DNA of 64,000 nucleotides from a virus. Location of the stretch: the IMG/VR virus record IMGVR_UViG_3300045988_163836. One strand, written 5' to 3'. Numbering within the stretch: position 1 is the first letter of the stretch; every line of letters starts with the position of its first letter. A model generated the notes under the pieces. The model did no database searches, was not told the DNA's origin, and saw nothing but the letters and a program-made list of their open reading frames with translations. Positions 18,424 to 20,585 of the stretch are shown piece after piece. Both the position numbers and the translations under genes were made by a program.

Positions 18424-19722
18424 ATGTTAGAACCTAATTACTAGTATGCTGATTACGTTTATACTTTATTTCCATCATGGAATGGAAAAATGATGAAAAG
18501 TTTAACTTTTCAAGTGACTGATGATTGTAATTTATGTTGCTCTTATTGTTATCAAATAAATAAAGGACATCATAAAATGTCCTTTGAAATCGCTAAAAAA
18601 TTTATTGATTATATATTTGAAGGACGAACTAATCCTGAATCATATTTTTATGAAGGAAAAATATTTGGATTCATTTTAGATTTTATTGGAGGAGAACCTT
18701 TATTAGAAATTGATTTAATTGATTAGATCTGTGAATACTTTGAAAATAAATTAAATGAAATACCAAAAGATTCTCCATGGCAAATGTTCCATGTTTTTAG
18801 TTTATGCTCTAATGGAGTTTTATATTTTACTCCAAAAGTATAGAAGTTTTTAAAAAAATATGGAACATTTGCGTCAATAAATATAACTATTGACGGTTGT
18901 AAAGAATTACATGATAAATGCCGTTTATTCCCTAATGGTCAAGGAAGTTATGATTTAGCAGTTAAAGCTGGATTAGATTTACTTAAAAAGGGCAATGAAG
19001 GAACTAAAATAACTTTTAGTCCAGACAATCTACCTTATGTATTTAAAGGAATAAAAAATATGATTGAATTAGGATTTAATAATATCTATGCTAATTGTGT
19101 TTTTGAAGATGTATGGACTAAGGAAGATTATATTAAAACTTATTATAATGAATTAAAAAAAATTGCTGATTATATCATTGAAAATAATTTACAAGATGAT
19201 ATTTATTTTAGACCTTTTGAACCTAATAATTATGCTCCATTAGAAATAGAAAGATTGGAAGAAAGATGGTGTGGAACCACTTCTAATATGTTTTCTTTAG
19301 ATTGGAAAGGAGACATTTATACTTGTATTCGTTTTATGGAAAGTTCTTTAGGAAATGATGTACCTCCTTTAATAATTGGTAATGTAGAACATGGTATCGG
19401 TTATACTAATTCTGAAAAATAGATATTAGAATCTTTTAAAAACTATACAAAAAAGAATATATCTACTAAAGAATGCCTAGAATGTCCAATAGAAAGAGGA
19501 TGTGCTTGGTGCGCTGGATGCAGTTATTAGATGACAGGAGATTTATGTCATAGAACTACAACAATATGTGAATGTCATAAAGCTGAATGTTTATCTACTA
19601 TATATTTTTATAAAAAAATAAATGACAAAAAGGCTCTAAATAAAATTGGTAAATTCGATTATAATTTTGTAGATAAAATTATTACTCAAGAAGAATATAA
19701 TTATTTAATAAAGGAGGAGTAA
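18424..19722 (+). CDS. radical SAM enzyme with SPASM domain (anSME-like peptide-modifying maturase), about 432 aa with five in-frame TAG
   Basis: CNLCCSYC CxxxCxxC cluster and GGEPLL. ITIDGCKELHDKCRLFPNGQGSYD matches the anSME/SPASM hallmark. C-terminal Cys clusters CGTTSN...C and CLECPIERGCAWCAGC. Joins track ORFs 18490, 19060 and 19531. Confidence 0.7.
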
Positions 19723-19724
19723 TT

Positions 19725-20585
19725 ATGGCTTGTAACTCAGGACGAGATAGTAGAACAATGGGTCGATATGAAGGCTCAGATAATTATCAACCAGGGCTAT
19801 CAGGTGGGGCTTGTGAAACAGGATGTTTTAATGGTGATAGTATGAATAGCGGGAATACTTGTTCTAGCTGTTCTGGCGATGATTGTGTAGCAGGTTGTGG
19901 AGAATGCAGTGTAGATTGTGGCCCAAAACGAACATGTGATACAGACTGTACTGGAAATTGTGATAATTGTACTGGACATTGCGGTGGTTGTGACGAATCT
20001 TGCTCTAGCTGTGAAGGCTCCTGTAGCGGAGGATGCTCTGGTACTTGCACAACAGCCTGTGCCGAACAATGTTCAGGAACTTGCTCTGGAGGATGCCTTG
20101 GACACTGTAATAATGGTTGCACAAGTGAAGAAGTAAATGAGTTAGAAAAGAATTTACATATTTCTCGTATTGCAGAAAGTGATGACATAAATAATCTTAA
20201 AAAGGTTATTTATAGATTATTTGAAAATTTAAAAGTCAGTAAAATTTATAATGATAAAAATTATATAAATGAATTTGGTGATAATAGTGTTGCTGGTCTT
20301 GTAAGCAATTGGAATGAAGATGAAAATGGAAAAATGACATATACTATGTTATTAAATAAAACCTTTGAAACTATTATTACTAATTTAAATAATTTAAATC
20401 AAGGACGTATTGTATTAGACCAAGATAAAATGAATCCTATTAAGATTTGGGATTTGGAAATCCCAGACCCAGATGATTTTACTAAAACAACAATAGTGCA
20501 TTTAAACACCGTAGATAGAGAAGCAGCTTTATATTGGATTGAATGCGTAAAAAAAATATTTACCTTAACAGCTCCTGTGAAATAA
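19725..20585 (+). CDS. Cys-rich protein (about 30 Cys in Cx2-3C repeats over the N-terminal 135 aa) plus a C-terminal globular domain; candidate substrate of the upstream rSAM/SPASM enzyme
   Basis: ATG overlaps the upstream stop. CSSCSGDDCVAGCGECSVDCG...CSGTCSGGCLGHCNNGC. Confidence 0.65.
   Translation: MACNSGRDSRTMGRYEGSDNYQPGLSGGACETGCFNGDSMNSGNTCSSCSGDDCVAGCGECSVDCGPKRTCDTDCTGNCDNCTGHCGGCDESCSSCEGSCSGGCSGTCTTACAEQCSGTCSGGCLGHCNNGCTSEEVNELEKNLHISRIAESDDINNLKKVIYRLFENLKVSKIYNDKNYINEFGDNSVAGLVSNWNEDENGKMTYTMLLNKTFETIITNLNNLNQGRIVLDQDKMNPIKIWDLEIPDPDDFTKTTIVHLNTVDREAALYWIECVKKIFTLTAPVK

Follow-up and report, generated by a model that had tools for sequence, protein, structure and literature searches.

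What does a radical S-adenosylmethionine (SAM) enzyme do beside a protein that is laden with cysteines, and what could the two of them build for a phage? This question is raised by a stretch of viral DNA of 64,000 nucleotides from the IMG/VR virus record IMGVR_UViG_3300045988_163836 (the whole of which is called the window below), in which the gene of a radical SAM/SPASM enzyme is directly followed by the gene of a Cys-rich protein. An earlier note on this DNA took the two genes for a maturase and its substrate, likened them to a ranthipeptide, sactipeptide or SCIFF operon, but with a protein-sized substrate, and considered such pairs to be rare in phages. In our judgement it is nearly certain that the cassette is of a different description, namely a variant of the CXXX-repeat modification system, which has been defined in silico, is catalogued under TIGR04114 (target), TIGR04115 (maturase) and TIGR04116 (associated protein), and is abundant in phages. 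In other words, the cassette is neither a new kind nor a rare one. What the system makes is a harder matter, and here we lean, by a modest degree only, towards the view that the region 18186-20585 is a three-gene CXXX-repeat modification operon that builds a thioether-laddered, probably virion-associated protein.

The enzyme is the most readily placed of the components. It matches TIGR04115 (“radical SAM peptide maturase, CXXX-repeat target family”) with 386.9 bits, above the curated cut-off of 350 (E 1.2e-115), and along the full length of the profile (positions 2-359 of 359); it also matches the SPASM model TIGR04085 at residues 283-376 with 30.7 bits against a cut-off of 27; both scores bear out its initial description as a SPASM-type peptide or protein maturase. 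Relatives at three of the related loci (numbered with an L throughout: L011, L013, and L008) score 408-462 bits against TIGR04115. The sequence contains CNLCCSYC (the CX3CX2C motif of residues 35-42), FIGGEPLL, TIDGCKELHDKCR, and C-terminal Cys clusters, and the full SPASM set of seven invariant cysteines lies within the last 150 residues, where these are the expected ligands of two auxiliary [4Fe-4S] clusters. The IDGxKExHDxxR-like motif is common to SPASM enzymes widely, and the Pfam models Radical_SAM and Fer4_12 match the enzyme weakly.

The second-best family is that of the PapB ranthipeptide maturase (NF047865), which is matched near full length with 182.3 bits, below its cut-off of 340. 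The SCIFF maturase model (TIGR03974) reaches 114.9 bits against a cut-off of 425, the QhpD model 104 bits against 453, the CcpM model 98 bits against 500, and the HxsB model 69 bits. The model of the anaerobic sulfatase maturases (TIGR03942) covers only the N-terminal half of the enzyme and scores 44.8 bits (cut-off 349). Among the weaker NCBIfam matches are several families that form cyclophanes, epimers, or formylglycine. The closest solved structure is that of CteB (5wgg; E 6.9e-21, residues 21-387). As judged from its sequence, therefore, the enzyme is a member of the catalogued TIGR04115 family, and its nearest characterised relatives, PapB, CteB, and QhpD, all form Cys thioethers.

It should be mentioned that this enzyme is not visible as a single gene under the standard bacterial code, by which 18424-19722 falls into three open reading frames (ORFs). 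A straight translation gives a 432-codon frame with five internal stops, and the earlier reading of the region as one full-length maturase was right about the protein and passed over these codons. All five are TAG, with no TAA or TGA among them, and the terminal stop is TAA. In an alignment of the enzyme with its homologues (A3), the Gln columns of which include homologues encoded without internal stops, TAG codon 140 stands in a column with at least 90% Gln and codons 101 and 369 stand in columns that are mostly Gln. In relatives that are 58-97% identical, the frame is likewise preserved over its full length. The ORF coverage of the plus strand of the window rises from 42 to 54 kb once TAG is taken as a sense codon. 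In-frame TAG codons number 15 in an ORF of 1182 codons, 14 in a RecJ-like gene, 9 in the ribonucleotide reductase gene, and 21, the maximum per gene in the window, in a 965-codon ORF on the minus strand; examples of long genes interrupted by TAG lie at 611-4159, 41258-43000, 51746-54010, and, on the minus strand, 60699-63596. Because the stops are only TAG and sit on Gln columns, and because long genes are restored, TAG is read as Gln across the window, which is part of a TAG-to-Gln recoded phage genome (code 15).

The gyrase, ligase, and Pol III alpha genes and the Cys-rich target gene are among those free of in-frame TAG. No suppressor tRNA with the anticodon CUA was found in the 64-kb window, the sole tRNA of which is a tRNA-Gly(UCC) at 400-473. 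Related contigs, among them IMGVR_UViG_3300045988_164919 (104.7 kb, with an enzyme that is 97% identical) and ENA contigs of ~186 kb, suggest a genome of ~100-190 kb. A regulatory meaning of the TAG codons, present in the enzyme gene and absent from the target gene, was considered and dropped, for the target gene of a related locus (L004) also has a TAG.

The neighbouring protein, with 286 residues, contains 27 cysteines, of which 26 lie in residues 1-132 and 23 in residues 46-132. It had been described as bearing about 30 cysteines in Cx2-3C repeats; the richness in Cys stands, and the dominant spacing turns out to be CX3C, a period of four. Fifteen of the 22 Cys-Cys intervals in residues 46-132 are of this type, the others being CX2C (five), CX4C (one), and CX5C (one). 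In 26 other genes of the window, Cys makes up 1.5% of the residues on average; against this background, the binomial probability of at least 26 Cys in 132 residues is ~1e-21. Across the target family the consensus unit is C-[S/T]-G-[G/S/T], with Ser or Thr at position +1 in 50% of the units, and 24 Cys columns are invariant in an alignment of 15 target sequences (A1). Because these columns are invariant over 33-90% identity, the lattice is, on the evidence of the alignment, a selected feature and not a product of chance.

The repeats are followed by a predicted helix, EEVN.L..NL.LSRIAESDDIN.LKKII, two positions of which, D154 and K159, do not vary even in comparison with the remotest homologues; its motif D-(I/F)-x-x-L-K recurs in a ~100-aa domain of other targets, with weak statistical support for homology (hhalign E 0.05). 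An exhaustive phmmer search with the C-terminal domain against 1.84 billion representatives returned 11 matches, all from its own family, plus low-complexity noise. As far as such a search can tell, the domain is confined to one small phage-lineage family and is absent from other architectures. Its AlphaFold2 (AF2) model is of the alpha/beta type and of moderate confidence, with a predicted local distance difference test score (pLDDT) of 69; the AF2 model of the full-length target (pLDDT 38.9) is unusable. Scans of the target and of its C-terminal domain with Pfam, NCBIfam, and PHROGs found no significant family. The target model of the system, TIGR04114, was matched neither by the whole target (NCBIfam, E up to 1) nor by the repeat region alone (E up to 10), and the target of L008 reaches it weakly, with 14.5 bits against a cut-off of 20. 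PF27846, listed for one homologue (P0038), was not reproducible in a Pfam scan and was rejected. The target homologues form 45 clusters, all of them metagenomic, on contigs of up to 214 kb. Read from its sequence, the target has no signal peptide and no hydrophobic segment, and is therefore not exported by itself.

A further feature of the target was seen at its N-terminus (19725-19745 in the window), where M-A-C-x-S-G is near-invariant in alignment A2, with C3 and G6 present in at least 90% of the sequences. This element is set apart from the main lattice by a variable linker of 25-50 residues, and it may be an additional site of modification or anchoring.

The evidence that the one protein acts upon the other comes from their pairing. 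For this purpose the best 80 viral (IMG/VR) loci and the best 80 loci from bacterial genomes were searched for a CXXX-periodic ORF on the same strand as the enzyme gene. Such an ORF lies beside the enzyme at 79 of the 80 viral loci and within 3 kb of it at 74 of the 80 bacterial loci. All target homologues with an inspected context directly adjoin a TIGR04115-type enzyme, and none was found without it. A CXXX ORF also lies beside the enzymes of L009, L011, and L013. Some enzymes at 45-50% identity seemed to have Cys-poor neighbours, and here the CXXX ORFs had been missed or called on the opposite strand (6262-6918 in L011; 2-358 and 4440-5543 in L013; L008 is also affected). ORFs as rich in Cys, Gly, and Ser as these often escape gene callers or are assigned to the wrong strand, and TAG-recoded enzyme genes are split; as a consequence the system is under-annotated. 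Since the pairing is kept among target homologues and at viral and bacterial loci alike, the Cys-rich neighbour is, on this genomic evidence, very likely the substrate of the enzyme, as had been supposed. The reverse picture, in which the enzyme would cluster with the sulfatase maturases and the Cys-rich gene would occur in genomes without a radical SAM neighbour, was not seen: the score against the sulfatase maturase model is the low one given above, and no unpaired homologue was found.

The supposed rarity of such pairs in phages, on the other hand, is not upheld. Relatives of the enzyme number at least 534 among representative bacterial genomes and at least 500 in IMG/VR, and the system is also present in cultured jumbo phages of Erwinia and of Salmonella (SPN3US-like phages in the latter case). 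These counts show that the CXXX system is predominantly or very frequently phage-borne, and the loci surveyed above show that the pairing of enzyme and target is almost invariant.

Where the earlier note saw a pair of genes, both of which are indeed present, it missed a third. An ORF of 77 codons stands immediately upstream of the enzyme gene, its stop lying 4 nt before the enzyme ATG, and the Shine-Dalgarno sequence of the enzyme (AAGGAG) falls within the 3' end of this ORF. The start of the target gene had been thought to overlap the stop of the enzyme gene; there is instead a gap of 2 nt between the TAA (19720-19722) and the ATG (19725), with the target Shine-Dalgarno sequence, AAAGGAGGAG, at 19710-19719 within the 3' end of the enzyme gene. 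Taken together, the region 18186-20585 looks like one transcription unit of three tightly coupled genes between two hairpins (Table 1). At related loci, an ORF of 92-116 aa occupies the same position directly upstream of the enzyme, and TIGR04116 (“CXXX repeat peptide modification system protein”) is matched by 4 of 19 such positional homologues, with a best E-value of 3.1e-29. HMM scans that included TIGR04116 gave no direct match to the 77-aa protein itself; its alignment with the positional homologues is colinear and full-length, with three blocks in the same order (hhalign P 0.003 global, 0.018 local). As its position and sequence suggest, this ORF is probably a divergent third component of the CXXX system.

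Table 1. Features of the CXXX-repeat cassette, in window coordinates
Feature	Position	Strand	Basis or remark
Terminator-like hairpin, 14-bp stem then T-run; upstream cassette boundary	18016-18047	+	End of flotillin-like gene
77-aa ORF, probable divergent TIGR04116-like partner	18186-18419	+	Position, weak profile match
Radical SAM/SPASM maturase, 432 aa	18424-19722	+	TIGR04115 family; five TAG as Gln; TAA end
In-frame TAG codons of the enzyme (codons 7, 101, 140, 333, and 369)	18442-18444, 18724-18726, 18841-18843, 19420-19422, 19528-19530	+	
CX3CX2C motif, Cys35/Cys39/Cys42, SAM-binding [4Fe-4S] ligands	18526-18549	+	Invariant columns in A3
SPASM region, Cys 283, 301, 351, 354, 360, 363, 382	19270-19569	+	Seven invariant in A3
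Target protein, 286 aa, no in-frame TAG	19725-20585	+	ORF, alignments, Cys count
Cys lattice, residues 30-132, 25 Cys	19812-20120	+	Core CXXX repeat in residues 46-132
C-terminal 154-aa alpha/beta domain (predicted), lineage-specific	20121-20582	+	phmmer, AF2
Conserved helical segment after the repeats, EEVNELEKNLHISRIAESDDINNLKKVIYRLFENLK, candidate “follower” recognition element	20127-20234	+	Alignment conservation
Terminator-like hairpin with U-run; downstream cassette boundary	20590-20638	+	-21.2 kcal/mol, z -6.1

At the downstream border, a promoter-like element (TTGACA-17-TATACT, 20588-20616; 11/12 sigma-70-like) overlaps the hairpin, and the Shine-Dalgarno sequence for the following 184-aa gene (ATG at 20644) is part of the 3' arm of this hairpin. 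The hairpin at 20590-20638 could thus be both a terminator and a translational gate for that gene.

A substrate of the size of a protein, which had been singled out in the earlier note, is normal for this family, in which the targets range from 52 to 650 aa and have up to 145 Cys. In the common form, a leader or domain comes first, the repeats run to the C-terminus, and the gene lies upstream of the enzyme gene. In a minority form, which includes the window and L007, L008, L009, L028, and L043, the repeats come first and are followed by a C-terminal domain of 110-150 aa, and the gene lies directly downstream of the enzyme gene. Clostridial and phage targets have an N-terminal domain of ~100 aa with the motif D-x-(I/F)-x-x-L-K-x-x-(V/I)-K-x-E-M-x-R-R...E-H-x-x-K, and this domain of common-form targets has a homologue at the C-terminus of the inverted relatives (hhalign probability 96.8%, E 3e-10). 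What is particular to the window is the inverted order together with the orphan C-terminal domain.

Two further observations concern targets outside the window. Targets in metagenome-assembled genomes of the Bacteroidales have twin-arginine translocation (Tat) signal peptides (SRREFFK at L050, 5639-5944; SRRIFLK at L059, 1440-1958), which implies that modification takes place in the cytoplasm and that the product is exported once folded or crosslinked; these targets are a cellular branch, distinct from the phage branch. The metagenomic, phage-like locus L008 has two CXXX ORFs (5601-5963 and 6001-6594), and downstream of its cassette, at 7458-11602, three more small radical SAM/SPASM genes (~225-295 aa) alternate with two paralogous proteins of 240 aa in a multi-radical-SAM cluster.

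The role of the product is suggested by where the cassette stands in related phages. In a prophage of Desnuesiella massiliensis mt10 (L016), the order is tail protein, baseplate wedge, a second baseplate wedge (J-like), tail protein, tail fibre, and CXXX target, followed by an ORF of 185 aa, the partner, the enzyme, holin, and endolysin. In L028 and L043, both with a repeat-first target, the order is baseplate wedge, baseplate protein, tail fibre, (partner), enzyme, and target, and in L011 it is Dit, minor tail protein, partner, enzyme, and target. Baseplate homologues are found upstream at six further bacterial loci and, always in the same order, at 35 of the 80 best IMG/VR loci, even though the flank covered at the latter was only 4 kb. 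The Erwinia jumbo phage vB_EamM_ChrisDB (KX397366.1, L094) has an enzyme that is 28% identical, and its cassette is flanked by the genes of a “virion structural protein” and of a “tail assembly-like protein”. In this case, three CXXX ORFs (1124-1516, 1526-1921, and 1957-2175 in L094) precede two radical SAM genes (gp184 and gp183); they comprise gp187, gp186, and one unannotated ORF at 1124-1516, where the record has gp188 on the opposite strand. The repeats of the CXXX proteins of cultured carriers contain neither Lys nor Arg. Phage genomes of three kinds thus repeatedly house the cassette at the distal end of a tail module. We found no description of this tail-fibre-slot placement in the literature.

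From these observations the following course of events may be proposed. By analogy with its family, the enzyme would cleave SAM reductively at the CX3CX2C cluster to give a 5'-deoxyadenosyl radical, and this radical would attack the target once per C-[S/T]-G-x unit, removing hydrogen from a carbon in a residue that belongs to the unit or adjoins it. As in PapB, CteB, and QhpD, the Cys thiol, held at the SPASM auxiliary clusters, would then join that carbon as a thioether, the Ser/Thr at +1 being the most conserved among the candidate acceptors. Iteration over ~23-26 Cys would turn residues 30-132 into a covalent ladder that resists proteases and reduction and is joined to the folded C-terminal domain. 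To judge by position and conservation, the 77-aa partner and the helix after the repeats would probably bring the substrate to the enzyme. To go by the context in relatives, the product would most likely be a virion-associated structural protein akin to tail fibres or adhesins; the target, with neither a signal peptide nor a hydrophobic segment, fits a protein kept in the cytoplasm up to assembly.

Several points weigh against parts of this proposal. The thioether chemistry is extrapolated from relatives to which the enzyme scores far below their own family cut-offs, the CX3D unit of PapB is not kept (position +4 of the target unit is the next Cys, not Asp), and in the literature no chemistry has been observed for any TIGR04115 member; a full-text search found nothing on TIGR04115, on CXXX repeats, or on any link of radical SAM enzymes with tail fibres or with Cys-rich proteins of phages. 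Probes for baseplate and fibre proteins matched nothing in the window, where the neighbours of the cassette are a flotillin-like gene, the 184-aa gene of no known function, PhoH, and a CHAP/amidase gene. The slot after a tail-fibre gene also encodes fibre-assembly chaperones, and such a position is no proof of a virion component. Between the C-terminal domain of the window target and the ~100-aa domain found in targets of tail modules, hhalign shows no significant similarity (E 0.05-0.13), fold searches with its model gave no informative structural neighbour, and the link between the 77-aa ORF and TIGR04116 consists of position and a weak profile match. With these points in mind, we regard the thioether chemistry, which is drawn from analogy, as somewhat more likely than not; a virion-structural role of the window target, drawn from the context in relatives, appears to us a real possibility that falls a little short of probable. 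The broader claim, that CXXX proteins are an unrecognised and widespread class of phage virion proteins of the tail-fibre slot, thioether-laddered by a phage-encoded radical SAM enzyme, is put forward as a tentative proposal about which we are rather doubtful.

The cassette might instead yield a diffusible or intracellular effector, such as a bacteriocin-like ribosomally synthesised and post-translationally modified peptide (RiPP), a superinfection-exclusion factor, or an anti-defence factor, acting as the mature protein or as a cleaved fragment of it. This would suit the fact that the nearest characterised enzymes make RiPPs, that the Bacteroidales targets are Tat-exported, and that the window cassette lies among auxiliary and replication-type genes and not among tail genes; moreover, the His-Xaa-Ser (HXS) repeat system, listed in the same catalogue of families, acts against phages through a repeat effector that is matured by a radical SAM enzyme (PMC13128918). 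An effector is nevertheless unlikely in our view. The window target lacks a signal peptide and a recognisable site for leader cleavage, no protease or transporter gene adjoins it, and it has a conserved domain of 154 aa that is predicted to fold; the cassette of many phage relatives is embedded in a tail module; and PADLOC, apart from a generic similarity of the radical SAM core to pVip models, matched no defence-system model. Another proposal would make the lattice a metal- or Fe-S-binding module of the metallothionein or ferredoxin kind, the enzyme performing some other chemistry (epimerisation, oxidation of Cys/Ser to formylglycine, methylation, or C-C crosslinking) or helping to load the clusters. 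Indeed, 26 closely spaced thiols look like those of metal-binding proteins, SPASM enzymes perform many chemistries, the weaker matches of the enzyme include the cyclophane, epimer, and formylglycine families, and the search of the literature yielded no characterised TIGR04115 member. However, the four best-scoring characterised neighbours are all Cys-thioether formers, and so is CteB, the best PDB match, whereas the model of the anaerobic sulfatase maturases scores far below its cut-off. The strict period of four, with small S/T/G residues between the cysteines, is unlike the CxC/CxxC clusters of metallothioneins, and it is held in targets of up to 145 Cys, which is a better fit to repetitive enzymatic crosslinking than to discrete metal sites. 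We consider this proposal quite unlikely.

A more sceptical view would be that the enzyme gene is a decaying pseudogene and that the Cys-rich ORF is unrelated to it or non-functional. The three ORFs under the standard bacterial code and the lack of a suppressor tRNA in the 64-kb window would be expected from such decay, but decay does not account for stops that are all TAG and lie at Gln-conserved columns, for the many otherwise intact long genes of the window that are interrupted by TAG, for the gain in plus-strand coverage, or for the full-length frame in relatives. The pseudogene reading is extremely improbable, being effectively refuted by the TAG-only stops and the genome-wide recoding, and our modest leaning remains that the operon makes a thioether-laddered, probably virion-associated protein.

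The nature of the carrier can be judged from the rest of the window, which has a G+C content of ~29% and is mostly devoted to replication and nucleotide metabolism. Its endolysin-type amidase and its PhoH resemble those of phages of Clostridia and streptococci. A blastn search of the GenBank phages found no close relative, the matches being limited to endolysin and PhoH fragments of Firmicutes phages. A 378-aa protein encoded at 5153-6289 (+) has an N-terminal signal peptide and, by eye, S-layer homology (SLH)-like repeats, which suggests a host with an S-layer or an SLH-anchoring cell wall; on the same N-terminal region it has PHROG matches to endolysin and “major tail protein” families. Because the resemblance of the amidase and PhoH and the SLH-like secreted protein both point in this direction, these sequences point to a phage of a Gram-positive (Bacillota) gut bacterium.

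Some other genes of the window deserve a brief mention. A flotillin/Band-7 homologue at 16638-18017 (+), directly upstream of the cassette, scores 227 bits against FloT, below the cut-off; its relatives match the Pfam families Band_7 and Flot, and its position is kept in L004-L006. The 512-aa protein encoded at 8620-10158 (+) matches PHROG 850, “RNA-binding protein” (E 2.4e-132), and is Ro60/TROVE-like by eye, an unusual cargo for a phage. At 32876-33895 (+), an ORF of 339 aa with 10 in-frame TAG codons matches GIY-YIG homing endonuclease PHROGs in its C-terminal 90 residues, and its N-terminal part is a long coiled-coil or membrane-anchored segment fused to this GIY-YIG-like end. At ~56000-58000, the coding strand and the GC skew change sign, the genes lying on the plus strand before ~57.5 kb and on the minus strand beyond it; this suggests that divergent or convergent gene modules meet here.

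If a thioether-laddered virion protein is indeed made, it would be, to our knowledge, the first case of enzymatic thioether crosslinking of a viral structural protein, and a new form of covalent reinforcement of phage structures beside the isopeptide chainmail of the HK97 type. Gut phages would thereby have a fibre or adhesin resistant to both proteases and reductants, of which the window protein would be a jumbo-phage variant; such a product would also explain the presence of radical SAM/SPASM genes in phages of anaerobes. The repeats would also offer a genetically encoded, repetitive crosslinking scaffold for protein engineering. The family models have existed since ~2011, and we found neither experimental nor phage-biology literature on the CXXX system. 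Because cultured Erwinia and Salmonella jumbo phages carry the cassette, the hypothesis is directly testable.

It remains to compare the cassette with the known systems. PapB, the SPASM enzyme of freyrasin biosynthesis in Paenibacillus polymyxa, forms several thioethers from regularly spaced Cys in one substrate. It is near in sequence over almost its full length, as the second-best family match of the window enzyme (for PapB, see also PMC12373016). Its substrate PapA, however, is a short leader-plus-core peptide with six CX3D units, whereas the window target has 286 aa and ~23 repeats with Cys at +4. CteB, which acts on a SCIFF peptide (thermocellin; PDB 5wgg/5why), shares the architecture of a radical SAM domain and a SPASM domain with two auxiliary clusters, but SCIFF peptides have ~45 aa and six Cys, with neither a repeat lattice nor a folded domain, against the 27 Cys of the window target. 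QhpD, also a SPASM enzyme, works not on a RiPP but on a protein subunit, QhpC, within which it links Cys to Asp/Glu by intramolecular thioethers. This gamma subunit of quinohemoprotein amine dehydrogenase is a precedent for a structural, protein-sized substrate; unlike the window target, it has three non-repetitive crosslinks and is part of a periplasmic enzyme.

In the HXS system (HxsA-D), a radical SAM/SPASM enzyme likewise acts on a protein with short-period repeats, and a phage-related function has been shown: the matured repeat protein blocks the entry of phage DNA (PMC13128918). According to the methods of the same study, the chemistry consists of changes of +12 or -2 Da on His/Ser/Arg (PMC13128918). 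Unlike the system in the window, the HXS system serves bacteria in defence, resides mostly on chromosomes, acts through a periplasmic effector, and has an HxS repeat in place of CXXX. The system to which the cassette belongs is the CXXX-repeat system, with which it shares an enzyme above the family cut-off, a neighbour with Cys at a period of four, and a small upstream ORF. This system was reportedly defined in silico by Haft and Basu (J Bacteriol, 2011). The window presents it in an altered form: the target and the partner do not match TIGR04114 and TIGR04116, the repeats are N-terminal and followed by a lineage-specific domain of 154 aa, the target gene lies downstream of the enzyme gene, and the whole is carried by a TAG-recoded phage.

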